Of a stretch of 32,000 bases of DNA, positions 3,427-32,000 are shown one piece after another. Source of the DNA: Chlamydiota bacterium (GTDB lineage Bacteria; Auribacterota; JACPWU01); the NCBI GenBank assembly GCA_016196885.1, contig JACPWU010000063.1, positions 5,222 through 37,221 on the forward strand, in the 5' to 3' direction. The position numbers and the translations under genes were made by a program. Below the pieces are notes generated by a model. The model saw only the letters and a list, made by a program, of their open reading frames with translations, did not search any database and was not told the DNA's origin. Numbering within the stretch: the stretch's first letter is position 1; each line of letters opens with the position of its first letter.

Positions 3427-3511
3427 AAACAGTTTTGAGTTTTAAGTTCTTAGTTTTAAGTTTTTGTAATTCAAAACTAAAAATTCAAAGTTTAAAACTG
3501 TTTTTGAAAAT
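3427..3511. repeat. AT-rich imperfect inverted repeat of AGTTTTAAG-like words between nuoB and nuoC
   Basis: AAAAACAGTTTT (3426-3437) is exactly complementary to AAAACTGTTTTT (3493-3504). The arms are built of repeated (G/A)AGTTTTAAG-type words. Stops occur at 3424, 3436, 3443, 3451, 3457, 3467 and 3478. Confidence 0.7.
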
Positions 3512-5354: not shown

Positions 5355-5386
5355 GTTCAAAGGTTTAAAAGTTCAAAGGTTCAAAG
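5355..5386 (+). repeat. Four tandem 8-nt words GTTCAAAG/GTTTAAAA directly upstream of nuoE
   Basis: Words start at 5355, 5363, 5371 and 5379. Three contain an AAGG Shine-Dalgarno-like core, the last of which lies 4 nt before ATG 5391. Confidence 0.8.
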
Positions 5387-5390
5387 GACT

Positions 5391-7323: not shown

Positions 7324-7373
7324 AAAAATAAATAACATCCCTATTATTCTGAATTCTGTCTTCTGTATTCTGA
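7297..7373. repeat. Heptamer-word inverted repeat (CAGAAGT words) at the nuoF/nuoG junction
   Basis: The left arm GAGGACAGAAGTCAGAAGTCAGAAT (7297-7321) pairs with the right arm ATTCTGAATTCTGTCTTCTGTATTCTGA (7346-7373) at 21 of 25 positions. The loop is A-rich. The left arm contains the nuoF stop. Confidence 0.85.
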
Positions 7374-7392: not shown

Positions 7393-8871
7393 ATGCCAAT
7401 ATTAAAAATTGATGGAAAAGACATAGAAGTTCCAGTCGGAACTTCTATCATTGAAGCGGCAAAAAAGGCCGGCATCGAAATCCCTCATTATTGTTATCAC
7501 CCTGGGCTTTCCGTTGCTGGAAATTGCCGTATGTGTTTGGTCGAAGTTGAGAAATTTCCCAAGCTTCAAATTTCTTGCTATACGCCTGTGACTGAGGGCA
7601 TGGTTGTTCACACGCAAAGTGAAAGGGTGAAGGACGCGCAGCAAGCCGTTCTCGAATTTCTCTTGGTCAATCATCCTCTCGATTGCCCCGTTTGCGATCA
7701 ATCAGGTGAGTGCGAGCTTCAAAATTATTATATGAAATACGGTCTCTATGACAGCCGCCTCATGGAAGATAAGGTCAAGAAACACAAGGCCGTTTCTATT
7801 GGTCCAACTGTGATGCTAGACGGTGAGCGTTGTGTTCTATGTTCTCGTTGTGTGAGATTTTGTGATGAAGTCACGCATACCCATGAAATGGGGATTGTGA
7901 ATCGTGGAGATCGTGCGGAAATTGAAGTTGCCCCGGGTAAAGAGGTAGACAATGACTATTCAGGAAATGTGGTGGATATTTGTCCTGTCGGGGCGCTTAC
8001 AGACAAAGATTTTAGATTTAAATGTCGTGTTTGGTTTTTGGCCCAAACGCCTTCTGTATGCCCAGGCTGTAGTCGAGGTTGCAACATTGAAATTCATTGG
8101 AATAAAGAGAGACCTTATCAAACTCCGGGAGAGAGGGTCATGCGTTTGAAACCGCGTTTCAACGCAGACGTCAATAAATTCTGGATTTGCGATGAAGGTC
8201 GTTACAATTACCATTGGATAGACCAGGGCCGGCTTTTGAAACCCATGCAAAAAAGGAGAGGTGTTCCCCATGAGGTTTCTTGGGAGGAGGCCTTCGGCAC
8301 TTTGTCGGGTCTTTTTTTAAGACCTCAGGAAATGGGAGTGATTGTCTCCACCGATATGACGAATGGAGATCTTGCGATGGCCCAGCAGCTTTTTGTCAGC
8401 GAGCTCAAGGTTAAAAATGTTGCTTATCAATGGATAAGAAAATCGGGTAAAGAAGACGAGCTCCTGATGAAGGCGGATAAAACGCCGAACACCCGAGGAG
8501 CTCAAGCCTTAGGATTTGAAGACCGATCAGGAGAGATTTATGAACAAATCGAAAAAGGTCAAATTAAAATCCTTTTCCTTTTTGGGCATAACTTGATGGA
8601 AATTTTGGGAAAAGATCAGGCAGAAAAAATGAGGTCTCATCTCGAGACCTTGGTGATTCTTGGCCCTCATGCCCATGAGGGTATAAATTTGGCCGATTGG
8701 GCCTTGCCTTCGGCAGTTTACGCTGAAAAAAACGGAACTTTTACAAATTTTGAGGGAAGGGTGCAAAAAATTTCTAAAGCCTTTCCTCCTATGGGAATGG
8801 CTAAGTCTGAACGAGAAATTTTGAAAGAAATGGCCCGACAGGCTGGAATTCACATAAACTTGACCGTGTAG
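7393..8871 (+). CDS. nuoG: NADH-quinone oxidoreductase subunit G (short form)
   Basis: 492 aa. It has an N-terminal 2Fe-2S ferredoxin-like region plus HPLDCPVCDQSGEC, CVLCSRCVRFC and CPVGAL cluster motifs. Only a truncated molybdopterin-like C-terminal part is present. Confidence 0.9.
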   Translation: MPILKIDGKDIEVPVGTSIIEAAKKAGIEIPHYCYHPGLSVAGNCRMCLVEVEKFPKLQISCYTPVTEGMVVHTQSERVKDAQQAVLEFLLVNHPLDCPVCDQSGECELQNYYMKYGLYDSRLMEDKVKKHKAVSIGPTVMLDGERCVLCSRCVRFCDEVTHTHEMGIVNRGDRAEIEVAPGKEVDNDYSGNVVDICPVGALTDKDFRFKCRVWFLAQTPSVCPGCSRGCNIEIHWNKERPYQTPGERVMRLKPRFNADVNKFWICDEGRYNYHWIDQGRLLKPMQKRRGVPHEVSWEEAFGTLSGLFLRPQEMGVIVSTDMTNGDLAMAQQLFVSELKVKNVAYQWIRKSGKEDELLMKADKTPNTRGAQALGFEDRSGEIYEQIEKGQIKILFLFGHNLMEILGKDQAEKMRSHLETLVILGPHAHEGINLADWALPSAVYAEKNGTFTNFEGRVQKISKAFPPMGMAKSEREILKEMARQAGIHINLTV

Positions 8872-8920
8872 TCGCCCGATTTATCGGGCAAATCCATTGC
8901 CCCATAAATGGGGCGACTAC
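8868..8920. repeat. Solo copy of the GTAGTCGCCC...GGGCGACTAC palindromic core (same core as the MITE)
   Basis: Outer 10-bp stem GTAGTCGCCC/GGGCGACTAC encloses two inner hairpins, GCCCGA-TTTA-TCGGGC and GCCCCAT-AA-ATGGGGC. The nuoG stop TAG (8869-8871) lies in the outer stem. Confidence 0.9.
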
Positions 8921-8930
8921 AAATAAAAAC

Positions 8931-10007: not shown

Positions 10008-10516
10008 ATAGAAGTGAGTTAACTTTTATTGAACGCCTTTATATCTTCGAAGCCCTGAAGGGCATTCTCCTCACCTCTCGTCATTTTTTTTGGAATCTTT
10101 TTTTGCATACCACTCATCTTTTTGGCTTGTTAAAAAATAAAAGTGCAGCTGTGACTGTGCAATACCCTGATGAAATAAGGCCTTACGCGCCTCGTTTGAG
10201 AACACGTCATCACCTGGTTCCTCGAGCCGATGGAAGTCCTCGATGTGTAGCCTGCATGCTTTGTGAAACAGTATGCCCTGCCAAATGTATTTACATCATT
10301 GCAGGAGAGCATCCTGATCCCAACGTTGAAAAAGTGGCAAAGCGCTTTGATCTTGATTTAGGTAAATGTGTTTATTGCGGTTTTTGCGTGGAGGTGTGTC
10401 CTGAGGATGCGATTCGCATGGACACCCAAATCATGAATATAGCGGCGTACAGTCGGGAAGAAATGCTTTTGGATATCAATGAACTTTTAAGACCGGGGAG
10501 CAGAAAGCAGTCGTGA
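10004..10516 (+). CDS. nuoI: NADH-quinone oxidoreductase subunit I
   Basis: Starts at ATG 10004 in an ATGA overlap with the nuoH stop (the track starts at 9938 inside nuoH). It has two CxxCxxCxxxCP motifs (CVACMLCETVCP, CVYCGFCVEVCP). Confidence 0.92.
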   Translation: MNRSELTFIERLYIFEALKGILLTSRHFFWNLFLHTTHLFGLLKNKSAAVTVQYPDEIRPYAPRLRTRHHLVPRADGSPRCVACMLCETVCPAKCIYIIAGEHPDPNVEKVAKRFDLDLGKCVYCGFCVEVCPEDAIRMDTQIMNIAAYSREEMLLDINELLRPGSRKQS

Positions 10517-10589
10517 GTCGTGAGGGGTGAGTCGTTAGTAAAAAATAATGCCTTTAGAACTCACGACCCACGACAGACGACTCACGACT
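10509..10589. repeat. Heptamer-word inverted repeat (GTCGTGA/GGGGTGA words) between convergent nuoI and the MurC-like gene
   Basis: The left arm AGTCGTGAGTCGTGAGGGGTGAGTCGT carries TGA at 10514 (nuoI stop), 10521 and 10528. The right arm ACTCACGACCCACGACAGACGACTCACGACT ends in the stop of the minus-strand gene. Confidence 0.88.
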
Positions 10590-11943
10590 ATCTACATTTT
10601 TGAATTTTCCTAACTATCTGATGCGCCAGTTCTGTCAACGTATGATCTCTCGCTCCCATCACCACGATGTTGTCTCCCTTTTTAGCTTTTTTTCGCAGTA
10701 TTTGAAGAAGTGTTTCACGATCTTGGCAAAAAAAAGTGGGGATTTTTTTCTTTTTTAGAACTTCCACAAAACTTTCTGAACTGATGCTTCTATCTGCTGT
10801 TCCACCCGCATCATAAATGGGTAGGAGATAGAGTTGGTCTTGAGGGCGAATCATCTTTGAAAGAATCTCAATCAGTTCTTGCCATTGATGCTTTAAAGGG
10901 CCAAACCCATGTGGTTGATAGACAGCAATCACCCGATCACTTTTGTCTTGAAGGGCGTTTAACGTCGCTTCAATCTTGGCGGGGTTATGAGCAAAATCAT
11001 CATACACTCGAATGTTGTTTGTCTTTCCAATCAATTCCAGTCTTCTTTCGACGCCTTGAAAGTTTTCAAGGCCCCTTTGAATGTGATGGATGGGAATCCC
11101 TATGATTTGGGCCGTGGCGATGGAGGCCAGGGCATTCATGATGTTGTGAACGCCCGGTATTTTTAAATGGTAAGGGGCTTCATCCACTTCAAAACGAGAT
11201 CCTTCCTTCAATAAGCGAATGTGATCGGCCTTTGATTTTCCGAAATAAAAAGATTTTTCTTTGGGAAGAGATAAATTTTTTGTTTCAGGACAGTCTGAAT
11301 TAATGACAATGGCTTTTCCCGTATGGAGGACGAGATGTTGAAAAAGATCATGGAGCTCTTTTAAGTCTTTATGGTCTTTGGAAATATTTGTGATCACAGA
11401 AATTTTAGGGCGATAATGAACGAGACTCCCGTCGCTTTCGTCTGCTTCTGCCAGAAGCCAAGGCCCTTTTCCAAAATGCCAATTGGAACTTTTTCCCTCC
11501 TCTGGAAAGTTTTTCACCTGGCCTCCGCATAGAAAGGAAAAATCCCAGCCTGCGGCTTTTAAAATGTGAGCCATCATGCCTGTCACGGTTGTTTTCCCGC
11601 TGGTTCCAGAAACAGCGATTCCCTCTTTTTGGTTAAAAATTTGGGCCAGCATTTCGGCTCGGGTGACCCGAGTGAACTTTTGCTTCTGGGCATGGACAAA
11701 ATCAGGGTTGTCTGATTCAACGGCGCTTGAATAAATAACAGCCGTTAAATCTGAAGGCAAATGGGCTCCATCTTGGGGAACCACAACGATTCCAGAGTTT
11801 TTGAATTGTTCTTGAAGCGATTCAGATTTCTTCTGATCAAAGGATCGGTCTGAGCCCATGACTTTATGCCCTTGGGCTCTTAGGAAATGAGCCAAAGAAC
11901 TCATTCCTGTCCCTGCCATTCCAACGAAAAAATATTGAGACAT
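10588..11943 (-). CDS. murC: Mur ligase family protein, MurC-like (UDP-N-acetylmuramate--L-alanine ligase)
   Basis: Starts at ATG (complement of 11941-11943), giving MSQYFFVGMAGTGMSSLAHFLRAQGHKVMGSD. It has the P-loop GTSGKTTVTGM and EADESDGS...NISKDH, which resembles MurC rather than Mpl. It is not located in a dcw cluster. Confidence 0.7.
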   Translation of the reverse strand: MSQYFFVGMAGTGMSSLAHFLRAQGHKVMGSDRSFDQKKSESLQEQFKNSGIVVVPQDGAHLPSDLTAVIYSSAVESDNPDFVHAQKQKFTRVTRAEMLAQIFNQKEGIAVSGTSGKTTVTGMMAHILKAAGWDFSFLCGGQVKNFPEEGKSSNWHFGKGPWLLAEADESDGSLVHYRPKISVITNISKDHKDLKELHDLFQHLVLHTGKAIVINSDCPETKNLSLPKEKSFYFGKSKADHIRLLKEGSRFEVDEAPYHLKIPGVHNIMNALASIATAQIIGIPIHHIQRGLENFQGVERRLELIGKTNNIRVYDDFAHNPAKIEATLNALQDKSDRVIAVYQPHGFGPLKHQWQELIEILSKMIRPQDQLYLLPIYDAGGTADRSISSESFVEVLKKKKIPTFFCQDRETLLQILRKKAKKGDNIVVMGARDHTLTELAHQIVRKIQKCR

Positions 11944-12544: not shown

Positions 12545-12661
12545 TCTTTTTTGATGTTGCCCTCGCTTTTTAGTATGAAATAGTTTCTAACTTAAATCAA
12601 GCGAATTTGGCTTGAGGCAAAAACGAATGCGTTTGTATGGGTAAACATATGAAAAAAATAT

Positions 12662-12794
12662 TAGGCATATGCACTTGATTCCCCTAGTAGTCGCCCGATT
12701 CATCGGGCAATCCATGCAAGGGGCACAAGGCTGCCCCATAAATGGGGCGACTACAAATTCTTTCTATCTGAGGGGAATCAAGTGCATATGCCTA
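12662..12794. mobile_element. MITE copy 1 (133 bp; perfect 24-bp TIRs; 8-bp target-site duplication AAAAATAT)
   Basis: The left TIR TAGGCATATGCACTTGATTCCCCT (12662-12685) is exactly complementary to 12771-12794. The flanking direct repeats AAAAATAT at 12654-12661 and 12795-12802 are identical. The interior is the GTAGTCGCCC...GGGCGACTAC core. There is no coding capacity. Confidence 0.88.
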
Positions 12795-12941
12795 AAAAAT
12801 ATTTATCCTTTTTATTTTTATTCTTTCATTGGGTCGAGCTTTCTCGGAAGAATTTTTGGTGAATCATGTTCAAAACACCTTTATGAAGTACCAGAATATG
12901 GTTTTTCATCTTATTATCCTGCATCTTGACGGGTGATAAGA

Positions 12942-13142: not shown

Positions 13143-13150
13143 GTTCCAGG

Positions 13151-13191
13151 GTCGTGAGGGGTGAGACATGACTCACTCCTCACTCTCACGG
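13151..13191. repeat. Short heptamer-word hairpin of the GTGAGGGGTGAG family
   Basis: GTCGTGAGGGGTGAG ... CTCACTCCTCACTCTCACG. TGA occurs at 13155, 13162 and 13169, covering all three frames. Confidence 0.8.
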
Positions 13192-13207
13192 TTGTAGTAC
13201 TTGTAGT

Positions 13208-14858: not shown

Positions 14859-16331
14859 ATGCAAATCGAATGTGTCAGTACAAAAGAGAGTGCAATCAAA
14901 GAATGTGATGCGATTATTCTGGGGGTGACGGAGGGTAAAAAAGATTTAGGTTTTCTTCGCGATTTCTTAAGTGAAAATCTTGTTAAAAGGATTGAAAAAT
15001 ATTTTACCCGAGCAGGAGCCCCCATTCGTAAAAACGACATTCTTTCTTTTGATGGGGATGGACAAATTATTTACACAGTGGTTCTTTCCAAAGAGCCCTC
15101 CATGGAAAATATTCGCCAGGCTTGTGGGCACACGGTCGACTTTGTTTGTGGCCAAGTCCATCGAAATGTTGCTGTGTTGGCTGATTCTTTTGGAACGAAG
15201 GAAGGAAATCTGACGGATCGTGTGGAGGCAATGGCAGAGGTTATTGACCTGGCCCTTTATCGTTTTGATCCCTTTAAGCCAAAGGATCAAAAGAGGAAAG
15301 ATTTAAAAACATGTCAGTTTATCTTTCGCGATGGCAAGGACGTTACGAAAGCGCTCAAGGCCGTTGAAATAGGCAGAACAGTCTCTGAAAGTGTCAATTT
15401 TACCCGTGACCTGGTCAACACCCCTTCCAATGAACTTCCGCCCCGTGTTTTAGCGGACCGGGCTTCTCAAATGGCGAAGGAGTGCAATATTTCAATCAAG
15501 ATTTACGATGAAAAAGAACTTCAGAAAATGAAAATGGGGGGGATTCTCGCCGTTTCTCAGGGAAGTGTTCAGGAGCCTCGAATGATTGTTCTGGAGTATG
15601 GAGATCCAAAGAAGCCGGTAGACTTTGCCTTTGTAGGCAAGGGCGTTACGTTTGACAGTGGCGGGATTTCGATTAAGCCCAGTGATGGAATGGAAAAGAT
15701 GAAATATGATATGGCGGGAGGCGCTGCTGTGCTAGGTATTTTGAGAACGGCAGCTAAACTAAGTTTAGATGTTCATATAGTAGGAATTGTTCCTGCGGCT
15801 GAAAATATGCCCAGTGGGGCGGCTTATCGGCCTGGAGATGTGATTTGGATGGGTTCAGGAAAGAGTGTAGAGGTTTTAAATACGGATGCCGAGGGACGTT
15901 TGCTTTTGGGAGACGGGCTTTTTCTTGCCGAGCGGTATAAGCCTAAAATGGTGGTGGATTTGGCCACATTGACTGGGGCCTGCGTGGTGGCCTTGGGAAC
16001 AGTGGTTGTAGCGGTTTTGGGCAATGATCCAAAAGTGATTTTGAAAATTAAGGAGGCCGGTGAGCTTTCGGGAGAACGCGTTTGGGAACTTCCTCTTTGG
16101 GATGATTATTTTGATCAGATTAAAAGTGATGTGGCTGAGATTAAAAATGTGGGAGGTAAAGGAGGTGGGACGATTACAGCAGCCATGTTTCTCAAGCAGT
16201 TTGTGAATTATCCTTGGGCGCATTTGGATATTGCAGGGACGGCCTGGGCGGAAGAAAAGAAGCCTTATTTCCAAAAAGGGGCAACGGGTGTGGGGGTTAG
16301 GTTGCTGACGAAAATGATGAGAAAACAATGA
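14859..16331 (+). CDS. pepA: Leucyl aminopeptidase (M17)
   Basis: 490 aa with the M17 signature NTDAEGRLLLGD, VGKGVTFDSGGISIKP and the metal-ligand context. Confidence 0.93.
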   Translation: MQIECVSTKESAIKECDAIILGVTEGKKDLGFLRDFLSENLVKRIEKYFTRAGAPIRKNDILSFDGDGQIIYTVVLSKEPSMENIRQACGHTVDFVCGQVHRNVAVLADSFGTKEGNLTDRVEAMAEVIDLALYRFDPFKPKDQKRKDLKTCQFIFRDGKDVTKALKAVEIGRTVSESVNFTRDLVNTPSNELPPRVLADRASQMAKECNISIKIYDEKELQKMKMGGILAVSQGSVQEPRMIVLEYGDPKKPVDFAFVGKGVTFDSGGISIKPSDGMEKMKYDMAGGAAVLGILRTAAKLSLDVHIVGIVPAAENMPSGAAYRPGDVIWMGSGKSVEVLNTDAEGRLLLGDGLFLAERYKPKMVVDLATLTGACVVALGTVVVAVLGNDPKVILKIKEAGELSGERVWELPLWDDYFDQIKSDVAEIKNVGGKGGGTITAAMFLKQFVNYPWAHLDIAGTAWAEEKKPYFQKGATGVGVRLLTKMMRKQ

Positions 16332-16427
16332 AGAATGAAGAATGAAGAATGAAAAGTGAAGAGTAGAAAATGAAAAACAAGGGAAGGTTGCGTTCTTCAT
16401 TTTTCACTTTTCATTCTTCATTGTTTT
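16322..16427. repeat. Heptamer-word inverted repeat (GAAGAAT words) spanning both stops of convergent genes; perfect period-7 stop ladders on both strands
   Basis: On the + strand, stops fall at 16329, 16336, 16343, 16350, 16357, 16364 (TAG) and 16371. TCA (TGA on the minus strand) falls at 16397, 16404, 16411 and 16418. AAAACAATGAAGAATGAA (16322-16339) is exactly complementary to TTCATTCTTCATTGTTTT (16410-16427). Confidence 0.92.
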
Positions 16428-17961
16428 TTTCTAGCCAGTTCTTCACATCAAAGCTTGCAGATATGTTGAGCTTGCCCTGGTCCATTCTTCCATAAGCGAG
16501 GATGTTTATCTCGTTGTCGGGATGGACGTAGAGGAGAAAATTCAGGCTTTTTGGAAAAGAGGCGGTCCTTTTTGAAAATTCAGAATCGGAGGAGACCTTG
16601 CTTTCCTTCGTTTTTTCTATGGCCTTTAGGAAATCTTCTTCTGAATTAAATTGAAGTCCTATCCAGTGCTGTTCCTCTTGATTCTGAGATTCTTTTAAAA
16701 AAGTGCTGTACAAGGATTTTTCCTTCCATTGAATTTGATCACACGAGCTGCCTTCCCTTTTTGAGATTTGCGCCTGATCGGCCTCTTGGAAAAAGCGGTT
16801 GAAATCTAGTCTTGTCTTTGTCCCGTCTTCCCTTTTTAGAGTGGCGACCACGAGGGCCTTTGCCTTTTTCTCTCCAGGGAAAAAATAGAGACTGACAAGA
16901 TTTTGAATGTGGGCCAGATAATTTCGGAAGAGGGCAGGGGGACCAGCATTTTCTTCCATGGAAAGAACCTTTTCAATTTCGACGGGTGTATTGAATGAAA
17001 TTTTCATCAGACCCAATACATTTTCAGGAGGGTTCGTTTCTAGAAGATTTTGAGTGGGAACAGAATTTTTAAATTGAGATTCTAATTTAGATCTTGTCAC
17101 GGGTTCGATTTGTGTATTCAGGTCCAATTTATTATTTTCAAAATGAAATCTTGTGACGATATGGCGGATTTGGGGGAGATTGTTTTCTAGGGATTCAAGG
17201 GCCAGACTCAGCAGTTTCGATTTGTCAGAGGAGAGAATGGGGTTCAGTTTCACTTTCAGGCTTTCGAGATCTTCATGATAGGCTTCGTAGGCCTGCTGGG
17301 TGTTGAGAACCATTTCGCAGTCCATTTTTTCTGAAGACGCTTGGCCTGTCTGGGATGAAAGGAAGATCTCAGGTTGAAATCCTTTCAAGATGTTCCGATC
17401 TCCTGAAACGATGACGAGACTCCCTCGAAAGGCCACATAATATTGAAAAAGCACTTTCTTTTGGAATTGCATCACATCTGTCTTGGGGTCTTTTTCAAGA
17501 GCTTTTAAATAGGCTTCTCTGTCAAATTGGGTCCTTTCTTCGGTGAATTCCTCAATCGGTTGATCTCGGGTCGCTTCCTTACGTGTAAAGCCACTCCCTC
17601 CAAAAAGTCCTTTTCCAAATCCCATGAGAAAAAGGGCCTTGTCCTTCAAGTGGGCAGAGTAGAGAAAGGGGTTGGGATGGGTTTTAGGGTCTAAGCGGAT
17701 GTAGAGAATGTCTTGGGATAAATCAAAACTTTCCATTTTTGTGTTTTTGAAAAAGATGGAGAAAATGAGTCCCGTGAGGGTTTGGCTCGATCGGCCGATC
17801 GGTGATAAAAGGGCGTCTATGTGAGTCAGGGTGTCCGATAGATTTTGGAACGAGATGTAACCCAGGCACGTTTCAGGAAGGCCCGAGGCGTTCTCGCTTG
17901 AAGAGATCGGCGTCCAGGAGCAAAAGAGAAAGTAGAAGATTGGAAGAACGAATTTTTTCAT
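16411..17961 (-). CDS. Secreted hypothetical protein (516 aa)
   Basis: Long ORF with the signal peptide MKKFVLPIFYFLFCSWTPISSSE. I recognise no family motif. Confidence 0.7.
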   Translation of the reverse strand: MKKFVLPIFYFLFCSWTPISSSENASGLPETCLGYISFQNLSDTLTHIDALLSPIGRSSQTLTGLIFSIFFKNTKMESFDLSQDILYIRLDPKTHPNPFLYSAHLKDKALFLMGFGKGLFGGSGFTRKEATRDQPIEEFTEERTQFDREAYLKALEKDPKTDVMQFQKKVLFQYYVAFRGSLVIVSGDRNILKGFQPEIFLSSQTGQASSEKMDCEMVLNTQQAYEAYHEDLESLKVKLNPILSSDKSKLLSLALESLENNLPQIRHIVTRFHFENNKLDLNTQIEPVTRSKLESQFKNSVPTQNLLETNPPENVLGLMKISFNTPVEIEKVLSMEENAGPPALFRNYLAHIQNLVSLYFFPGEKKAKALVVATLKREDGTKTRLDFNRFFQEADQAQISKREGSSCDQIQWKEKSLYSTFLKESQNQEEQHWIGLQFNSEEDFLKAIEKTKESKVSSDSEFSKRTASFPKSLNFLLYVHPDNEINILAYGRMDQGKLNISASFDVKNWLEKNNEE

Positions 17962-20527: not shown

Positions 20528-20533
20528 AAATAC

Positions 20534-21433
20534 ATGCAATTCCTACAACAACTCATCAACGGCATCAGCTGGGGAAGCATTTATGCCCTGATCGCCTTGG
20601 GATACACCATGGTGTATGGGGTTTTGCGCCTGATTAATTTTGCCCATGGCGATATTTACATGCTGGGGGCTATGTTTGGCTATTATGTGGCGGTCTTTCT
20701 CGGTGTGGCCGAACATGCCTCTGGTGTGAGAGTGCTGTCTGTTGTTCTGATCAGCATGCTTGGATGTGGATTGATCGGGGTCGGCATTGAACGATTTTGC
20801 TATCGTCCTTTGAGAAAAGCCCCCCGCCTCGCGGCCTTGATGACGGCTGTTGGAGTCTCTCTTCTTTTGGAAAATGGGGGACAGTTGATTTTTGGGGCCG
20901 ATCCTAAATTTTTTCCTCCCCTCATTCACACCCGAGAAATTTTTAGGTTTCACGAAATTGTTCTTAATAACATTCAACTGATGATCTTTGCGGTTTCTCT
21001 CCTTTTGATGTTCCTTCTTCACTGGATTGTGATGAAAACTCGCATGGGAAAGGCCATGCGGGCCGTGTCTTTTAGCCATGATGCGGCGGGTTTGGTAGGG
21101 ATTCCTGTGAATCGGGTGATCAGTTTTACTTTTTTTCTAGGCTCTCTCTTGGCTGCGGCCGCTGGTATTTTGGTGAGTCTTTCCAATCCCAAAGTGGAGC
21201 CTCTCATGGGGATTATGCCGGGGCTGAAGGCTTTTGTGGCCGCGGTATTGGGCGGGATTGGAAACATGATGGGTGCGATGATCGGGGGTTTGATCATGGG
21301 GATTTCTGAAGTGCTCGTCTCCGGCTACATTTCAAGCACGTATCGAGACGCCTTCGCCTTTTTTATTTTAATTTTTATTTTGCTTTATAAACCGTCTGGA
21401 CTTTTGGGGAAGACGGGACCGGAGAAATTATAG
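20534..21433 (+). CDS. livH: Branched-chain amino-acid ABC transporter permease
   Basis: 299 aa and polytopic. It has a LivH-like N-terminus MQFLQQLINGISWGSIYALIALGYTMVYG. Confidence 0.9.
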   Translation: MQFLQQLINGISWGSIYALIALGYTMVYGVLRLINFAHGDIYMLGAMFGYYVAVFLGVAEHASGVRVLSVVLISMLGCGLIGVGIERFCYRPLRKAPRLAALMTAVGVSLLLENGGQLIFGADPKFFPPLIHTREIFRFHEIVLNNIQLMIFAVSLLLMFLLHWIVMKTRMGKAMRAVSFSHDAAGLVGIPVNRVISFTFFLGSLLAAAAGILVSLSNPKVEPLMGIMPGLKAFVAAVLGGIGNMMGAMIGGLIMGISEVLVSGYISSTYRDAFAFFILIFILLYKPSGLLGKTGPEKL

Positions 21434-21509: not shown

Positions 21510-21513
21510 AATT

Positions 21514-22455
21514 ATGAAATCGATTCGACAAGTTCTTTTCTGTGTTGCTATTTTATGCTTTTTTTTCTTTCTCAATCACTTCCTCACCCTTTACCTCAAT
21601 CCCTATTACCTTCAAATCCTTATTTATGCCGGGATCAATGTGATTCTGGCGATCAGTCTTAATTTGGTGAATGCCCAGACGGGCCAATTTTCAATGGGGC
21701 ATGCTGGATTCATGGCGGTGGGGGCCTATGCGAGTGCTTTTTTTACTGATCGGGTGGGACCTCTCCTTCATTCTTTTTTCACGCACGTGCTCGCGTTCCC
21801 GGATTTTTTCTCTTCCTTTTTCATTTTTGGTTTTGCCTTGGTGATTGCGGGGTGCCTCTCGGCGGGTGCGGGCTTTATCGTAGGGTTACCCGTTTTGAGA
21901 TTGCGCGGAGATTATTTGGCCATCGCGACGCTTGGGTTTGGCGAAATCATTCGGGTGATGATTTTAAACATGGATGTCGTGGGTGGGGCACGCGGCTTTA
22001 CCGACATTCCTATCTATACGAATGTCTTCTGGTTGGGACTCTGTGTTTATGGGACTTGGATGGTGATTGGAAACCTCATTCATTCAACGAAGGGCCGAGC
22101 CTTTTTAGCCATTCGGGAGGACGAGGTGGCGGCGGAATGCATGGGGATTCACACGACGAAATATAAAGTAGGGGCCTTTGTGATCGGCGCTTTTTTTGCA
22201 GGAGTGGGGGGAGCCCTCTTGGCGCATGAAGTCGGGTATTTGCACACGAATTCTTTTACATTTTTAAGGTCCATTGAAATTGTGGTGATGGTAGTGTTGG
22301 GTGGGACGAGTCTCGTGGGTTCAGCCCTTGCAGCCATTGTTTTGACTCTTTTACCGGAGGTGTTAAGGTTTTTCAGTGAATATCGGATGGTCGTTTATTC
22401 ATTGGTTTTAATTTTTTTGATGTTGGCCAGGGCTAAAAAATGGAAAAGTACTTAA
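21514..22455 (+). CDS. livM: Branched-chain amino-acid ABC transporter permease
   Basis: 313 aa and polytopic, LivM-like (LRLRGDYLAIATLGFGEIIR). The last codons (WKST*) lie in a repeat arm. Confidence 0.9.
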   Translation: MKSIRQVLFCVAILCFFFFLNHFLTLYLNPYYLQILIYAGINVILAISLNLVNAQTGQFSMGHAGFMAVGAYASAFFTDRVGPLLHSFFTHVLAFPDFFSSFFIFGFALVIAGCLSAGAGFIVGLPVLRLRGDYLAIATLGFGEIIRVMILNMDVVGGARGFTDIPIYTNVFWLGLCVYGTWMVIGNLIHSTKGRAFLAIREDEVAAECMGIHTTKYKVGAFVIGAFFAGVGGALLAHEVGYLHTNSFTFLRSIEIVVMVVLGGTSLVGSALAAIVLTLLPEVLRFFSEYRMVVYSLVLIFLMLARAKKWKST

Positions 22456-22499
22456 GTAAAAAAATCCTTCCTTGCTAACTTAAGCACTTAGACACTTAG
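22442..22499. repeat. CTTAAG-word hairpin element, copy L (inverted relative to copy R at 24029-24108)
   Basis: 22451-22499 aligns to the reverse complement of 24031-24088 with about 45 identical positions in about 50 columns. The match includes the loop core TCCTTCCTT and the arm CACTTAGACACTTA. Confidence 0.85.
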
Positions 22500-22513
22500 T
22501 TAGTAATACGCAT

Positions 22514-23305: not shown

Positions 23306-24022
23306 ATGCTAAAAATCAACAACTTAATCGTCTCATACGGCAACATCAAGGCCCTTCAAGGAGTTTCCCTTGAAGTAAAAGAAGGGGAAATTGTGACTTT
23401 GATCGGAGCCAATGGGGCAGGGAAGACCACTCTTTTAAAGACGATTTCGGGATTGATTGCGCCCGTTTCGGGAACGATTTATTATTCTAAAAATGAAAAA
23501 AATAGTTCTTTAAATCATATGGCTCCCCATGAAATTGTGAGGCTGGGTGTATCTCAAGTCCCGGAAGGGAGAATGGTTTTTGCGAATTTGTCCGTGGCTG
23601 AAAATTTAGATTTAGGGGCTTTTTTGAGAAGGGATGCGCGTGAAGTTAGAGAAAGTCTTGATAAAGCCTTTCAACTTTTTCCAAGATTGAAAGAGCGAGT
23701 GACCCAAAATGCAGGTACTTTAAGCGGAGGAGAGCAGCAAATGCTTGCCATTGCCCGTGCTTTAATGGCAAAGCCCAAACTCCTTTTAATGGATGAACCT
23801 TCATTGGGTCTTGCACCCATTTTGGTAAAAGAAATTTTTGAAACCATTCGAAAAATCAATCAAGAAGGTCTAAGCATTTTACTCGTAGAGCAAAATGCGC
23901 ATCTTGCATTGCAATTGGCCCATCGGGCGTATGTATTAGAGACAGGTAAAATTGTTCTTGAAGGTCCTGCACGTGAGTTGGCTATGAATGAAGAGGTGAA
24001 GAAGGCGTATTTGGGGGCGTGA
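23306..24022 (+). CDS. livF: Branched-chain amino-acid ABC transporter ATP-binding protein
   Basis: 238 aa with Walker A GANGAGKTT, signature LSGGEQQ, Walker B LLLMDEP and KAYLG at the C-terminus. Confidence 0.92.
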   Translation: MLKINNLIVSYGNIKALQGVSLEVKEGEIVTLIGANGAGKTTLLKTISGLIAPVSGTIYYSKNEKNSSLNHMAPHEIVRLGVSQVPEGRMVFANLSVAENLDLGAFLRRDAREVRESLDKAFQLFPRLKERVTQNAGTLSGGEQQMLAIARALMAKPKLLLMDEPSLGLAPILVKEIFETIRKINQEGLSILLVEQNAHLALQLAHRAYVLETGKIVLEGPARELAMNEEVKKAYLGA

Positions 24023-24028
24023 TTAAAT

Positions 24029-24108
24029 GTCTAAGTGCTTAAGTGTCTAAGTGATTAAGTTATAAGGAAGGATTTGTTTTTACTTAAGCACTTGGTTACG
24101 CACTTATT
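24029..24108. repeat. CTTAAG-word hairpin element, copy R; period-8 TAA ladder
   Basis: TAA occurs at 24024, 24032, 24040, 24048 and 24056. AAGTGCTTAAG (24033-24043) is exactly complementary to CTTAAGCACTT (24083-24093). It lies between convergent livF and the hybrid kinase gene. Confidence 0.88.
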
Positions 24109-25235: not shown

Positions 25236-25289
25236 GTCATCCCCGAGTGCACTTGTCGGGGATCCATTTTATTTCAAAACTGGATTCCC
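25236..25289. repeat. GTCATCCCCGAG...TCGGGGATCCAT...TGGATTCCC palindromic element, copy 1
   Basis: The hairpin ATCCCCGA-GTGCACTTG-TCGGGGAT is followed by a T-rich tract and TGGATTCCC. The same modules recur at 30412-30459. It lies between the response-regulator stop and the hybrid kinase start. Confidence 0.8.
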
Positions 25290-25767: not shown

Positions 25768-25903
25768 TAGGCATATGCACTTGAGGATTCCCCTAGTAGT
25801 CGCCCGATTCATTGGGCAATCCATGCAAGGGGCACAAGGCTGCCCCATAAATGGGGCGACTACAAATTCTTGCTATCTGAGGGGAATCAAGTGCATATGC
25901 CTA
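25768..25903. mobile_element. MITE copy 2 (136 bp; about 97% identical to copy 1; 8-bp TSD CTCTTTGT/TTCTTTGT)
   Basis: It has the same TIRs and core as 12662-12794. It differs by a 3-nt GGA insertion in the left TIR and two substitutions. The flanking octamers 25760-25767 and 25904-25911 match at 7 of 8 positions. Confidence 0.88.
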
Positions 25904-25923
25904 TTCTTTGTTTTATTCTAACA

Positions 25924-27534: not shown

Positions 27535-27743
27535 CTCTCCCTATATGTTTGGAATGATCCTATGTTGATTATTATACCTTATATTTTTAGAGAAATGAAA
27601 GAATTGTATATAACTAATTGATTAAGAAATAGTTATAAATTAACTCAAATTGTTTTACTTTTTACTTTTCACTTGCCATCCGTGTCTTTATTAGAGAAAT
27701 CCAGGGTTTATTTCATTTATTTCTATAGGTACAGGGGGCAGTT

Positions 27744-29525
27744 TTGACACAGAAAATTCTTTCTCAACTTATTGCGCTGATACGTGTTAGCTTTCTTCTG
27801 CCTCTCTCGCTCTCTTTGGTTCTAGATCCTTCTCTTCTTTCTCAACCCCTTTTTGCTCAAAGCTTGGTTTCTAAGCCCCTCAACATGGAGGCTTACTCAA
27901 CTCCTTCTTTTTTAGACATGGATCTCTCTGAAGAGAGCGGGATGATTCAAAGACGATGGGTTTCACCAAACGCCTTCCAAGAAAAGAAAGTGGTGATTGT
28001 CCAGGATATTCACGTGCAGCCTGAGGCCCAGAAGAACATTGCCTGGATGATGGAGCGTTTGGTCCAGGATTATGGCGTTCATTGGATTGGGGTGGAAGGT
28101 GCTTCTGGGCCCCTCGATATTTCCCGGCTTGAGAAGGTCGAGGCCAGTTTGAAGAAGAAAGAGGAAGTGACGCATCAATATTTAAAGAGAGGAATTCTAA
28201 CAGGTCCTGAAATGCTTTCCATTATCAAGGATGGAAAATTGGGTTTGAAGTTCTGGGGAATTGAGGATGTCGAACTTTATCGGGAGAATCTAAAATATTT
28301 TAGAGAGACGGTGAGGGCTCGAGAAAAAGTGATGGAGGACTTAAAAGGATGGATCCAAGAGATTCGTCAATTGGAAAAGAAAACTTATTCAAAAGAGTTG
28401 TGGGAGTTTGAGGAAAAGGCGTGGGCGTATGAGGAGGGGAAGTTGCCCCTAGATCAGTGGGTGGAATATTTAAAAACAGTCGATAGTCGACAGTCGATAG
28501 TCGATAGTTCAAAAGGGATAAATTTATTTTTTCCGTGGACTATGGTCTATGGACTGTGGACTCAAGATTATGTAAATACATCTCTCATTCTTCAAATCAG
28601 TTCTCTTGAGAAAAATTTGGATCTTAAAAAAGTAGAAGAAGAGCGCAAAACGTTTTTGGAATCTTTAGAAAAGAAATGGGTGAAGGAAGAAATGGCCCAT
28701 GTTTTAAAGGACAGTTTGCTCTTTCGTTTGGGTCGCATGAGCGAGGCGAAATATTATGAGACTTTAAGCCCTTATCTTAAGAAGGTTTCAGGCTCCTTTC
28801 CCAATCTTGAAAAATACATCCAGGCGGTGCTGATTCAAAAAGAATTAGATTGGCCAGCTCTGTCAAAAGAAATTTTAAAACTTGAAGATGAAGTGAGAGA
28901 TAAGCTTATGCAGTCTGAAGAAGAGAAGAAATTGTATAAGGTGTCGGAACAATTTAAGGCAATTGGGAAAATATTGAATTTGGAACTTACACGGGATGGG
29001 TTTGAGGAATATCGAGATAAAGAATGGGGAAGTGTTCAGAAGGTGAGGGAGGATGTTGAATATTTGATGATTCAAAATCAAAAATCAAAAATCAAAAATC
29101 TCCTGGCTGGGCTTCAGTCTTCGGCATCCTTCTACCAAGCCGCACTCAAGCGAGATCATGTTCTATTTGCTAATTTAATGAATCAAATGGAGAAGGAAAA
29201 AATTCAAGAGGCGGCGGTGGTGGTGGGTGGATTCCATAGTTCAGCTTTAGAAGAAAATCTTAAAGAGAAAGGAATTTCTTTTATTGTTCTGGCGCCCCAG
29301 TTAAAGCATGTAGAGGAATTGACCCCTTATGTAGACCTCATGATGGATGATGAAATCCTCATTCCTGAAGAGAATAAAAATCAGCACATGGCCCCTCCGC
29401 ATGAGGTGGATTCTGGTGAAGCGATTGTTAAAAATCTTGGACTATCTGGACGGGCAGAGAAAAATATTGAAGAGATGCAGAGGGGGATGGGAGGACAGGA
29501 GACTTCTGAAGCTCTATCTTTTCAG
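27744..29525 (+). CDS. Secreted or membrane-anchored TraB/GumN (Tiki-like) family protein; the 3' boundary is not defined by a stop codon
   Basis: TTG 27744 lies 5 nt after AGGGGG. The N-terminal hydrophobic signal/anchor is ILSQLIALIRVSFLLPLSLSLVL...LFAQS. Family motifs are VVIVQDIH, HWIGVEGA and ALKRDHVLFANLM...AAVVVGGFHSSALEENLKEKGISFIVL. Protein-like Glu/Lys-rich composition continues to about 29520. The end is placed at CAG 29523-29525, one transition away from TAG. Confidence 0.6.
28479..28562. repeat. Heptamer-word inverted repeat (GTCGATA / ATGGACT words) located in frame inside the TraB-like CDS
   Basis: Left-arm words start at 28479, 28486, 28493 and 28500. Right-arm words start at 28535, 28542, 28549 and 28556. 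The arms are complementary at about 17 of 25 positions. The element encodes VDSRQSIVDSSKGINLFFPWTMVYGLWT. Confidence 0.85.
29072..29100. repeat. Tandem heptamer TCAAAAA (about 4 units) in frame inside the TraB-like CDS
   Basis: TCAAAA, then TCAAAAA three times, then TC. It encodes QNQKSKIKN. On the minus strand it reads as a period-7 TGA ladder. Confidence 0.85.
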
Positions 29526-30073
29526 GGGACAAGAGCAGCAAGTCGTTTCTCGACAACGACCACCCGATTTTCAAGAAGGCTAAATTCTTCCAGATCAACT
29601 TTAACTTTTATTTGGCTCTTAATGATGCGAATGTCGGATTCGATGCGGACATTGCTTTCTTCGATTTTAGCGACTCTGGATTCAATTCGAACGACTTTTT
29701 CATCTAGGTGCGAAACTTTCTCATCTAATTTTGAAACCTTTTCATCTAACTTCTTAAATTGGAATTGGGCTCGGATTTGGCCGTCGCTCAGTTCCAGAAG
29801 TCCAGACGAAAGAAATTTTAGGGTTTCTTCCGTTTTGGAAAATCTTTGGTCAATTTTTTCAAATTTTTCATTGCTCTCATCAAATCCCCGATCCACACGC
29901 TCTCTTAATCCGACTAAGCCTTCACCAAAAACCTTAAATTGGCTTCGCATCTCCTCAATGATGACGGAATTATACCGCTGGATTTCCTCAGGAGTGGGAA
30001 TGGGTTTCGGAGTTTTTTTCTCATTTTTCTCATTCATGGAAAGGATTCTAATTTCAGGGTTGTCACAAGTCAA
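29522..30073 (-). CDS. Coiled-coil protein with KLDEKVS-type repeats (hypothetical)
   Basis: 183 aa from TTG, or 171 aa from ATG (complement of 30035-30037, MNEKNEKK). It has heptad-like repeats KLDEKVSKLDEKVSHLDEKVVRIESRVAKIEESNVRIESDIR. Its composition is far more protein-like than the overlapping + frame. It sits directly downstream of the DUF2283 gene on the same strand. Confidence 0.55.
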   Translation of the reverse strand: MTCDNPEIRILSMNEKNEKKTPKPIPTPEEIQRYNSVIIEEMRSQFKVFGEGLVGLRERVDRGFDESNEKFEKIDQRFSKTEETLKFLSSGLLELSDGQIRAQFQFKKLDEKVSKLDEKVSHLDEKVVRIESRVAKIEESNVRIESDIRIIKSQIKVKVDLEEFSLLENRVVVVEKRLAALVP

Positions 30074-30137
30074 TCGAAATTTATTTTTCCGCCTTGCGGC
30101 TTTGGAAAATGTCAGAAGTCAAGACTTGACCCCAGAT

Positions 30138-30353
30138 TCAAGCAGCAGTGACAGGAATGTCGATCGTTACCCTACCGAGCTCCTCGATGGGCAAACGGGT
30201 GCTGGCATCCAGGATCTCGAGACCAAAGAGCCTCCCCCTTTTGTCGATGTCGCACAGAATTCCGTCTCGAATTTTAATCGTCTGACTGATTTTAGACTTT
30301 TTCTGGAACTGAATATAGAGGGCATCAGCCCGGCTGTCATAATTTATTTTCAT
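30138..30353 (-). CDS. DUF2283-family small protein
   Basis: 71 aa. MKINYDSRADALYIQFQKKSKISQTIKIRDGILCDIDKRGRLFGLEILDAS follows the DUF2283 pattern (YD..aDalYi ... D.d..G.l.GiEil.AS). Confidence 0.7.
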   Translation of the reverse strand: MKINYDSRADALYIQFQKKSKISQTIKIRDGILCDIDKRGRLFGLEILDASTRLPIEELGRVTIDIPVTAA

Positions 30354-30411
30354 CTTTTATTCTCCTTCCCAATCGGAATTTTCCATTACATGCTCAAGAT
30401 GCTTGTAAGTT

Positions 30412-30505
30412 GTCATCCCCGAGTGTTTTTATCGGGGATCCATGTTTTTTTGGATTCCCGCTTACCCCTTTCTGGGGCTACTTCGTTGAAGCTTGCGGGA
30501 ATGAC
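30412..30505. repeat. Composite palindromic element, copy 2 of the GTCATCCCCGAG family, plus an ATTCCCGC/GCGGGAAT hairpin
   Basis: The hairpin ATCCCCGA-GTGTTTTTA-TCGGGGAT (30415-30439) is followed by a T-run and TGGATTCCC. ATTCCCGC (30454-30461) pairs with GCGGGAAT (30495-30502), enclosing CCCC-TTTCT-GGGG. ATG 30501 lies in the last arm. Confidence 0.8.
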
Positions 30506-32000
30506 GGATACAGGGGGTAGATCCATTCTGGGTAAAGGAAGGCTTTTTGTCAATGCTTTAGGGGTATTAACGACTTCAGCTGCAGGCGGCAACGTGGCCT
30601 CGGGAAATTGGACGGCGGAGTACGAGGGGGATTTGCATGGGATCTTTAAATCCCTTTTTGGGACGGATGGGGATGTGAGTGCACGGTATCAGGAGCAAGT
30701 GGAACAGTATCGAGAATTTCTTGCGCGTTATGTGCCGGAGGTGTTGGCGGCTTTGGATATGGACGAGGGTGTGCTGGCGCAGGTTGGCAATGGTTCGGCT
30801 TCGAGTAAAGATGCATTAAAAGAAAGATTGATGGAAATCCTGCCGCGAATTCAGGCCTTCTTTTTTAAACCGCCCAATGGCTATGATGATTTTGCAGCTC
30901 TCATTTCACCCTCCCCTCAGTCCCCTCCCATCGAGGGAGGGGAAGTACAAGGAGGAAAAGATTTTGCGCTTCATGCAGATGCGCATTTTGGGCATCATCA
31001 AACTTTGCCAGGGCCCGACCAAGAACAAAATATTTACATCGCTTCTCCTGCCTTCGACAAGAAAACGGAAGGAGAGAAATTAGAGATTATTGCCCATGAA
31101 TTGGTGCATCTTGTTTTGGGACGTGGGGATGATGTGCATACACTCGCGAATCAGGTGGGGGCGGCGGTGAGGAGGGAGTATGATGAAGAAAAATTTGATT
31201 TAGCGAAAGTTCAGGAGGGGATGAAAAGATTTTTGGCTGCTAAAAAAGATTTATTTGATGCGGTGCAGGAAGGCGATGAAGCGTTGGCTAAAACGCAGTA
31301 TAAGATTTTGGAGGAAGTTGTTGGAGAGTTAGCCGGCAGTGGTATTCAAAAGATTTCTCAAGAGACTTTGGTTCAGTTGATGGCCGATAGACTTGAGTAT
31401 CGTAATTATATTGAAGCAGTTGTAAGTTATCTTAAATCAGGAGGTTCTTCAAAAAAAGAAATAGAAGAAATTATTAAAGCACTTGAGTTGTCTAACCTTT
31501 CTCAAGTCGTGATGGAAATGAGAGAGTTGGGAGTCGAGGAATTTCCAGCTTTGATGCAAGAGGAGATTCCTAAAATTGTTGAGGAGGTAATAAATTCTGT
31601 TTTTGGAGATGATAAAGATAAGAGGGATAAGTGGCGTCCAGAGATTTTGGAGGCAATCAAAACCCATGCATTGGCGAATCAATTTCCAGAAGGTACGTTT
31701 ACAACCTATGATTTTCAAGATAAAGAAAAAAACTTAAAACTTTTAGCTCGACTTGCCCAGTTAACAATCAATGTCGGAGCAGCTGAAGCGGATGCAGATA
31801 GAGAATTGGGTGTTGTACACTTAAGTGTGACCAAGGGCTGGGATGCTCGGCAACTGAGGGTGGCATTGAAACATGAGCTTGTTCATTGGCTGGCTTTTAA
31901 CAAAGTTTTAAAAATTGATCCGAGTTGGGAATTTACAACGTTTGCAGCCCATTCCGCAGATCGTATCATTGGCTTTGCTGAGGGTGTTTCAGAAGACGAA
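30501..32000 (+). CDS. Secreted protein with two HELVH (HExxH) metalloprotease-like motifs; partial, continues beyond the window
   Basis: MTDTGGRSILGKGRLFVNALGVLTTSAAGG looks like a signal peptide. EIIAHELVHLVLG begins at about 31086 and VALKHELVHWLAF at about 31860, roughly 255 aa apart, each preceded by a similar hydrophobic strand. The composition is protein-like. The start is uncertain because the ATG sits in a repeat. There is no stop before 32000. Confidence 0.65.
   Translation, partial: MTDTGGRSILGKGRLFVNALGVLTTSAAGGNVASGNWTAEYEGDLHGIFKSLFGTDGDVSARYQEQVEQYREFLARYVPEVLAALDMDEGVLAQVGNGSASSKDALKERLMEILPRIQAFFFKPPNGYDDFAALISPSPQSPPIEGGEVQGGKDFALHADAHFGHHQTLPGPDQEQNIYIASPAFDKKTEGEKLEIIAHELVHLVLGRGDDVHTLANQVGAAVRREYDEEKFDLAKVQEGMKRFLAAKKDLFDAVQEGDEALAKTQYKILEEVVGELAGSGIQKISQETLVQLMADRLEYRNYIEAVVSYLKSGGSSKKEIEEIIKALELSNLSQVVMEMRELGVEEFPALMQEEIPKIVEEVINSVFGDDKDKRDKWRPEILEAIKTHALANQFPEGTFTTYDFQDKEKNLKLLARLAQLTINVGAAEADADRELGVVHLSVTKGWDARQLRVALKHELVHWLAFNKVLKIDPSWEFTTFAAHSADRIIGFAEGVSEDE
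30909..30942. repeat. C-rich/G-rich palindrome CCCCTCCC-ATCGA-GGGAGGGG inside the HELVH protein gene
   Basis: The 8-bp perfect stem pairs 30922-30929 with 30935-30942. It is preceded by a CCCTCCCCTC direct repeat and encodes PSPQSPPIEGGE in frame. Confidence 0.8.

Follow-up and report, generated by a model that had tools for sequence, protein, structure and literature searches.

How can a hairpin of a kind that usually carries stop codons lie in the middle of a coding frame, and which is the unit that persists there, the stretch of protein or the stretch of nucleic acid? The question is raised by nucleotides 28477-28562 of a 32,000-nt window of contig JACPWU010000063.1 (all coordinates below are positions in this window unless another contig is named, and the coding frame is counted from the TTG at 27744). 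In this place, two complementary arrays of 7-nt units separated by an A/T-rich loop form a hairpin inside a gene for a secreted domain of the Tiki/ChaN superfamily. The explanation that we prefer, with a probability of about 0.75, is that this is one copy of a dispersed hairpin repeat, carried as a translated passenger in a loop of the protein, the nucleic acid being the unit that persists. With its termini the element probably spans 28471-28566.

An in-frame hairpin within a single domain

The initial annotation of this locus had described a hairpin with arms of 7-nt units and an A/T-rich loop inside a coding frame, and the sequence is as described there (Table 1). Tandem Repeats Finder reports both arms as period-7 arrays, and the 14-mer GTCGATAGTCGATA, with up to two mismatches, has three matches, all inside the element, for 0.05 expected. 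The sense-strand RNA folds at -36.5 kcal/mol, against a mean of -17.8 for shuffled sequences (z -6.5; none of 200 shuffles was as stable), compared with -21.7 kcal/mol for the antisense strand. In the best register, 28485-28511 pairs with 28536-28562 through 22 Watson-Crick pairs out of 27 and one G·U, i.e. 81% and not the roughly 17 of 25 first counted; the first left unit (28477-28484) stays unpaired, and the pairing of the arms leaves three G·G mismatches, 7 nt apart. An intrinsic (Rho-independent) terminator was considered and rejected: each arm is interrupted at 7-nt intervals, and no T-run or U-tract follows in the 3′ flank, CAAGATTATG.

Table 1. Features of the embedded element and its host gene (window coordinates)
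Feature	Position	Strand	Description
Host gene	27744-29521	+	Secreted Tiki/ChaN-superfamily 'head' domain; TTG start, signal-peptide-like N-terminus
Outer limits of embedded element	~28462-28566	+	~85% DNA identity to L059 10704-10808; includes TAAAAACAG (alignment, sliding-window identity)
Left terminus	28471-28479	+	TAAAAACAG: stop-like TAA (here out of frame), three purines, CAG
Left arm	28477-28511	+	CAGTCGAT AGTCGAC AGTCGAT AGTCGAT AGTTCA; five NAG boundaries (CAG, TAG, CAG, TAG, TAG) at exact 7-nt spacing
In-frame unit boundary	28491-28493	+	CAG = Gln250; L059 counterpart at 10733 also CAG
Loop	28512-28535	+	24 nt, A/T-rich, AAAGGGATAAATTTATTTTTTCCG; small inner stem GGGA/UUCC in the fold
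Right arm	28536-28562	+	TGGACT ATGGTCT ATGGACT GTGGACT; stop-free in all + frames
Encoded peptide	28479-28562	+	VDSRQSIVDSSKGINLFFPWTMVYGLWT, residues 246-273; codon-usage score -0.26 (non-coding-like)

Relative to the coding frame, the five unit boundaries of the left arm have offsets 1, 2, 0, 1 and 2: CAG 28477 stands at offset 1, TAG 28484 at 2, TAG 28498 at 1 and TAG 28505 at 2. The three TAG triplets are out of frame and the CAG at 28491 is the sole boundary in frame, both of which had been noticed at the outset; since this single in-frame boundary is CAG, the frame stays open. The copy would be translated as an extra ~19-28 residues, poorly ordered in the model. That the CAG replaced an earlier TAG, as had been proposed, is not required, because the boundaries of the intergenic hairpins described below mix TAG, CAG, GAG and AAG. 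The element lies away from the gene boundaries, 735 nt from the start of the gene and no less than 840 nt from the end of the domain.

The alignments and the structure prediction point in the same direction. The segment is missing from 195 of 196 homologues (47 out of 47 derived from genomes, 148 out of 149 best representatives). Most of the 47 have a gap of ~18 residues at the site, and some hold other inserts of 5-11 residues, which marks the site as a variable loop. At each of residues 253-272 of the window protein, no more than 3% of the 149 representatives have a residue, and their interval 240-282 has a median of 24 residues, versus 43 in the window protein. HMMER alignments to several homologues split at query residues 245 and 273-278, which are the limits of the encoded 28 residues. 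The columns that are invariant in an alignment of 29 family members, H90 (QDIH), Q96, E118/G119 (GVEG), G172, R470 and G495/G496/H498 (GGFH), confirm that family motifs flank the element (H90 and E118/G119 before it, R470 and G495/G496/H498 after it). The AlphaFold model (mean predicted local distance difference test score, pLDDT, of 69) shows the host domain as a single fold with one internal stretch below 50, residues 252-271, a loop between two confident helices (236-254 and 264-275) that is taken as a surface loop. As modelled, the domain is Tiki/ChaN-like and the element occupies a loop of its helical lid that varies in length; alignments and model together support an insertion into a single domain. 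One part of the first proposal that did not hold is a simple, private, lineage-specific insertion, because a second protein carries a copy at the same loop. A third protein, P0147 (L077 918-1012), has an unrelated insert of ~24 amino acids in this loop, made of three small G+C-rich palindromes (-38.5 kcal/mol, z -3.0).

A family of hairpins and a second copy at the same loop

Ten hairpins of the same architecture were found in the window, nine of them at gene boundaries, the tenth being the coding copy. Those at boundaries occupy gaps of 2-31 nt or overlap a stop codon or the end of a neighbouring gene, also inside the nuo and liv operons. Two of them (10508-10590 and 16326-16425) have both arms overlapping the ends of convergent genes, and at the 3′ end of nuoF the left arm (7301-7323) encodes the last seven NuoF codons, all its boundaries being CAG and the stop being the TAA that opens the loop. 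Five NAG triplets at exact 7-nt spacing are present in the left arm of six of the ten (the coding copy, H3431, H10509, H14771, H20448 and H21431), and the five bases between NAGs are repeated within an element and differ between elements. The left arm closes all three frames in four of eight intergenic copies, two frames in three and one frame in the last; that of the coding copy closes two. A 'stop ladder' is frequent, not universal. Arm complementarity is 80-91% and folding energy -20 to -51 kcal/mol in the intergenic copies; the values of the coding copy lie within these ranges, so that the decay under coding constraint once suggested for it is not borne out. The loops at 10540, 19256 and 20479 resemble one another, and the loop of the coding copy, aligned with the reverse complement of the H7302 loop (7324-7343), shows homology to it (score 24, for a maximum of 18 in 300 shuffles). 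The terminus made of stop, purines and CAG is also found at intergenic copies, as TAAAAACAG at 3424 (H3431) and TAAAGGCAG at 20441 (H20448), where the TAA or TAG is the stop codon of the upstream gene.

The window is unusually rich in such arrays, with 17 period-7 runs versus 0-2 in nearly all of 55 other loci. There are none in L056, which holds the nuo genes of the closest relative (83% identity in NuoD) and is without elements at nuoB-C, nuoF-G and nuoI-murC; in the last case the two genes overlap in L056 and are separated by an 83-nt hairpin in the window. This presence/absence polymorphism at orthologous sites concerns the hairpin family as a whole, the coding copy itself having no close orthologue. 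Most of the closest named relatives of NuoD are labelled Omnitrophica or Omnitrophota. The start codons of nuoC, livH and livM are found 2-8 nt after hairpins (3505-3512, 20529-20534 and 21511-21514), with no recognizable Shine-Dalgarno sequence. RNAalifold applied to a MAFFT alignment of the elements gave no consensus structure, and Rfam at gathering thresholds reported tRNA only. Integron attC sites were rejected, the flanking genes belonging to the nuo and liv operons and not to cassettes, and CRISPR arrays were considered and dropped.

The same words recur in other genomes. Scanning metagenome contigs for the encoded peptide patterns matched more than 600 places, and 11 loci were confirmed (GC 0.40-0.69), which are not Tiki-like genes and which hold ATGGACT arrays or AGTCSAT/ATGGACT hairpins at gene ends. 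Several mix AGTCCAT and AGTCGAT units, and the G·G mismatch is therefore taken as a family trait; several open with the stop codon, purines and CAG terminus, e.g. TAGAAACAG in L068. Similar hairpins were seen in a few contigs of Omnitrophota and Elusimicrobiota (L042, L050 and L027). Those of L050 (1045-8000, an Endomicrobia contig) and L042 (7823-8907) have GTGGAGA, GTGAAGA or GGTAACA units, and some of their long loops enclose a second hairpin; they suggest that the architecture is widespread. A link to phages was discarded, with only six exact matches among 2.9 million viral contigs. No paper in the literature searched contains the heptad strings, and two papers on Omnitrophota giant genes mention neither the head domain nor such hairpins; within that literature, the hairpin class is not described before.

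The second copy at the same loop is in protein MBI1871109.1 (P0152; 2,039 amino acids), from a groundwater metagenome-assembled genome (MAG), GCA_016178055.1, labelled 'Chlamydiae bacterium'. It reads VNSRQSTVDRSKGINIFFPWIMDRGLWS at the loop and is the only one of the 149 representatives to hold the segment. Positions 10719-10805 of its contig, L059, are identical to window positions 28477-28563 at 74 of 87 nt (85%), and the two copies have in common the loop site, the orientation, the frame, the in-frame CAG, the hairpin (-28.6 kcal/mol, z -3.55 in L059) and the three G·G mismatches; the L059 terminus is TAAAGGCAG. One compensatory T-A to C-G and one G-C to G-U change are seen in the stem, where one mismatch now pairs and three pairs no longer form; the codon differences amount to nine non-synonymous and three synonymous. 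In the remainder of the domain, DNA identity between the two genes is 47%, protein identity 29% and third-position identity 37%, compared with 86% at third positions in the element. With the element left out, P0152 shares 25.9% identity with the window protein, which places it at rank 115 of 149, and the 28-codon window of highest identity in the whole alignment begins at residue 245. At the edges of the block, identity falls off, from 86% to ~61% just upstream and on the downstream side to background. From the contrast between 85% and 47% DNA identity, and between 86% and 37% at third positions, we infer that it is as nucleic acid, and not as protein, that the element persists or spreads. Going by these sequences, an element shared at one site with so distant a relative of the gene is no one-off accident. 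The gene junctions of L059 also have heptad hairpins and the same GTAG-type REP (repetitive extragenic palindromic) sequences as the window, and the record of the window's NuoD comes from a MAG that is likewise labelled 'Chlamydiae bacterium', for which reasons the two genomes appear to be related. The exact variant is known in these two copies, from 32 kb and 19 kb of two genomes; related variants are numerous.

In the explanation that we prefer, the repeat would have four to five 7-nt units in tandem in its arms, every boundary being NAG, and an A/T-rich loop. Its usual location would be spacers at gene ends, where TAG- or TGA-bearing units and a frequent terminal TAA or TAG close two or three frames and where the hairpins would be kept harmless by their placement. 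The coding copy would be carried by the protein as a passenger, while the nucleic acid would be what persists. As to how the two copies arose, we can only infer. A tentative favourite, though given somewhat less than an even chance, is two insertions from one active subfamily, aimed at a gene-end mimic ('TAA + purines') and filtered by the permissive loop; the recent gain of the family, the even and neutral-looking substitutions, the gene-end-like terminus and the indel-hot-spot loop speak for it. The loop is a hot spot for indels, as the different insert of P0147 shows, and may be a general sink for palindromic insertions. It is also possible, at roughly one chance in three, that one older insertion was kept similar by constraint on the hairpin DNA or RNA, as the common site, frame and mismatches and the pair-preserving changes would have it. 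A short-patch transfer or conversion is unlikely given the sharp drop of identity at the edges of the block, on which ground a gene-conversion tract was rejected.

Several points weigh against our explanation. One stretch of the left arm (SIVD) can be aligned with an S-ID/G-LN motif found in homologues and, judging from this alignment, could derive from ancestral coding sequence. No close orthologue of the host gene (more than 36% identity) that might show an empty site is present in any collection searched. Substitutions are spread evenly over stems, loop and codon positions, a pattern that neutral drift of young copies would explain no less well than constraint. A neighbour-joining tree puts both genes in one 10-leaf clade whose other eight leaves are without the element, so that the insert could have come to both by common descent. 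The same loop is not found in any intergenic copy in the ~1 Mb of sequence examined; the flanking sequences of the elements and of the L059 block show no evident target-site duplication; and no transposase or other mobilizing gene was identified. A nhmmer profile of eight intergenic elements misses the coding copy at E≤10; its power is low, given heptads so variable that even H3431, one of the training members, scores only E 0.5.

The strongest competitor, unlikely in our view but to be taken seriously, is a functional cis-element under purifying selection, inherited from the common ancestor of both genes and lost elsewhere; it might be a site of mRNA processing or stability, a translational pause between domain halves or a recombination junction. 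The identity of site, frame and orientation, the excess of DNA and third-position identity over the rest of the domain, and the grouping of both genes in the 10-leaf clade are all what it would predict, as are the retention of the hairpin with its three G·G mismatches, the one compensatory and two other pair-preserving changes, and a sense fold far stronger than the antisense one. However, the loop is conserved as much as the stems and three pairs are lost, which selection on structure only does not predict; the eight other clade members and 140 further representatives do without the element; and, outside it, the two proteins rank with the most distant pairs of the set. The gap between sense and antisense energies may, from a comparison of the two folds, stem largely from G·G versus C·C mismatches and from the inner loop stem, G·U contributing little, with one such pair in the main stem.

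Another possibility is that nothing was inserted and that the hairpin grew in place, slippage having amplified a 7-nt unit and template switching having made the complementary arm. Each element of the window has its own heptad, as if locally made, the mismatches recur at the same unit position, the first part of the encoded peptide is alignable with homologue residues, and perfect heptad tandems without a partner do exist, one of them in the same gene (29074-29100). But such growth would not give an 85%-identical block of 100 nt, loop included, in a gene that is 26% identical elsewhere, nor a loop homologous to that of the element at 7324-7343, and ATGGACT/AGTCSAT words with the TAR-RRR-CAG terminus recur in unrelated metagenome contigs; we regard it as improbable. 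Still less credible, at a few chances in a hundred, is an artefact or dead DNA, i.e. a misassembly at a repeat or a pseudogene host. The host frame is indeed stop-free for more than 4.2 kb, antisense through two minus-strand genes, and the Logan contig from the source run stops at 28155, before the element; against this, the same domain continues in the right order on both sides, an independent MAG has the same arrangement, the 552 stop-free codons have coding-like usage with all invariant residues intact, and, wherever Logan contigs overlap the window, they match it at 100% identity. Finally, the proposal of the initial annotation that an ancestral in-frame TAG at 28491 separated two genes and was mutated to CAG, fusing them, has next to no chance: although elements of this type are usually intergenic and stop-bearing, both flanks belong to one domain, continuous across the site in ~196 homologues with invariant catalytic-type motifs on either side and modelled as a single fold, and the L059 copy also has CAG in frame.

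We may also speculate beyond the favoured explanation. RNA stabilizers, insulators against stray ribosomes and protein-binding sites are possibilities for the role of the junction hairpins. In a broader and rather doubtful conjecture, heptad 'stop-ladder' hairpins would be undescribed, widespread, site-seeking elements that recognize gene ends (stop + purines), the coding copy reflecting either homing at a mimic site or a conserved RNA or DNA signal. In a stronger version, the hairpins may be recombination junctions at which genes or domains are exchanged, which fits the conserved element between saturated flanks, the octamer arms flanking livG-livF 1.5 kb apart and the hot spot at the loop. 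The same element in the same loop of two genes diverged to saturation offers a test case for targeted insertion versus selection at the nucleic-acid level within coding sequence.

Host gene and other repeats of the window

The host frame is stop-free from ~27730 to the end of the window, and since it is still open there, the gene is absent from a program-made list of open reading frames (ORFs). Its codon-usage score is +0.28 to +0.35 up to 29521 and about +0.3 in the flanks of the element. The His, Glu, Arg and Gly-x-His motifs of the superfamily are all present in order in the protein, and 3 of 29 homologues match PF04187 (ChaN/Tiki), with a best E-value of 1.9e-6; the window protein itself has no Pfam match above threshold. 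The label 'TraB/GumN-like' given to it originally is, from these motifs and matches, reasonable at the level of the superfamily and no further. No relative was found among the sequences of the Protein Data Bank (PDB), a PDB profile search gave only spurious calmodulin-level matches, and the top Foldseek match of the model, the erythromycin esterase EreC, is not significant (E 0.6).

An exhaustive HMMER search collected 7,485 cluster representatives of the host family, the best of them sharing ~35% identity with the window protein. The majority are giants of 1,000-6,500 amino acids with the head domain at the N-terminus, and 51 genome loci with their open frames give the same picture of a domain heading giant proteins. 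A word-indexed protein search with the host protein returned four homologues only, and the 86-amino-acid segment around the element matched nothing; single-protein scans of genome contigs and metagenome contigs gave no relative of the host protein. According to the papers on giant genes of Omnitrophota, N-terminal regions are mostly without identifiable domains.

The plus-strand frame remains open for 1,418 codons, from 27744 to 32000. It runs antisense through two minus-strand genes, a coiled-coil gene (29522-30073) and a DUF2283 gene (30138-30353; Pfam E 1.7e-16), crosses a terminator-like hairpin and from ~30501 enters a coding-like region with HExxH motifs. Resampling gives probabilities of 0.0014, 0.10, 0.048, 0.27 and 0.14 for the absence of stops in five pieces of it; their product is ~3e-7, but such a post-hoc product would overstate the surprise, the true figure being less extreme. 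A long gene is plausible from the giant proteins of relatives, yet without support from homology: no similarity to the giant homologues, to P0001 or to P0152 was detected for the ORF that lies downstream of 30501. Exact-protein look-ups of the two downstream minus-strand genes returned no record, and gene callers probably took the long plus-strand ORF in their place. In assemblies of this kind, hairpins together with a frame that is stop-free for more than 4 kb will mislead gene callers. Further into the host gene, upstream of the RD...GGFH motifs, a perfect (AAAATCA)x4 at 29074-29100 encodes QNQKSKIKN and has no complementary partner array nearby; it could act as a slippage switch, one unit gained or lost shifting the frame.

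Other repeats of the window have different designs. Two arrays of 8-nt units (GTGATTAA / GTGTCTAA type), at 22458-22505 and 24019-24080, are reverse complements of each other (78% over 41 nt) at a distance of 1.5 kb; they bracket the ABC ATPase genes livG and livF, and look like a hairpin split by, or enclosing, two genes. A terminator-like hairpin (CCCCGA...TCGGGG followed by a T-run, plus strand) occurs at 25236-25274 and 30412-30450, 85% identical. Short-period arrays without a full partner arm, ATTTTAG x5.7, GTTCAAAG x4 and TTTTACT x3, are found at gene starts or ends (1937-1976, 5355-5387 and 27653-27674), and the loop of a compact GTGAG-type hairpin (13148-13192) holds a possible ATG of a minus-strand ORF.

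Relation to known systems

Four kinds of known repeats invite comparison. Phase-variable heptanucleotide tracts inside genes, e.g. in neuO, are described in PMC13001214. These tracts are likewise made of tandem 7-nt units in a coding region, where one unit gained or lost would shift the frame, in our case straight into TAG; unlike them, the present units are imperfect, with at most two identical neighbours, and are paired with a complementary array.

A second group, REP, BIME and REPIN sequences, consists of extragenic palindromes tagged by GTAG (PMC3733652). They too are extragenic hairpins dispersed at gene ends, and the heptad TAGTCGA resembles the REP head GTAGTCGCC, which we mention as a lead only; in contrast to the heptad hairpins, REPs are single short palindromes without 7-nt periodicity, and no RAYT gene is visible in the sequence examined. 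The window does contain canonical GTAG-type REP doublets (GTAGTCGCCCGATTYATCGGGCA, inverted pairs) at 8867-8924, 12687-12758 and 25796-25867, the last two within 12649-12804 and 25786-25916. Some doublets lie inside a longer repeat of 118-150 nt, two sites of which show 98% identity. The same REP sequences are found in L059 at ~8230-8290 and 17825-17890, and Logan contigs break near one of the doublets of the window (~25843-25878).

Heptamers arranged in tandem are a third case. The cyanobacterial STRR heptamers were reportedly described by Mazel and colleagues in 1990. The TAACTGA direct repeats of Beggiatoaceae and cyanobacteria form heptanucleotide arrays at gene boundaries; in Beggiatoa, start codons follow closely behind, often without Shine-Dalgarno sequence, and one inverted example has been reported (PMC4679880). 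The forward repeats close all three frames, so that overlap with a gene end can only be brief (PMC4679880). The heptad hairpins have in common with the TAACTGA repeats the 7-nt period, the location at gene ends or just upstream of starts and the frequent lack of a Shine-Dalgarno sequence; their period, their place at gene ends and their three-frame stops recall the STRR repeats as well. They differ from both TAACTGA and STRR repeats, which are direct arrays of one fixed heptamer, in being two complementary arrays that form a long hairpin and in having a heptamer that varies by element.

The closest parallel in behaviour is with the Rickettsia palindromic elements (RPE) and the intragenic members of ERIC/RU, palindromic repeats resembling miniature inverted-repeat transposable elements that lie in frame inside genes (PMC10969869; PMC2759123). 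Few routes turn non-coding selfish DNA into protein sequence, and palindromic repeats in frame, so far documented mainly in Rickettsia and enterobacteria, are one of them; where the repeat class is usually stop-bearing, only rare combinations of phase and variant survive inside genes. As with RPE and ERIC/RU, we have a short dispersed palindrome in frame within a gene, a peptide at a permissive place and intergenic members as well. The differences are several: there is no sequence relation to RPE or ERIC, and the arms here are tandem 7-nt units with periodic NAG, mostly stop-bearing and with most frames closed; RPE and ERIC carry a conserved ORF, whereas the peptide here changes freely (nine non-synonymous to three synonymous differences between copies); and, unlike theirs, the in-gene copies here are two, both in one loop of one protein family, with no target-site duplication or transposase found. 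By analogy, the element matches a selfish palindrome that is tolerated in frame, behaving like RPE and ERIC while standing outside those families.

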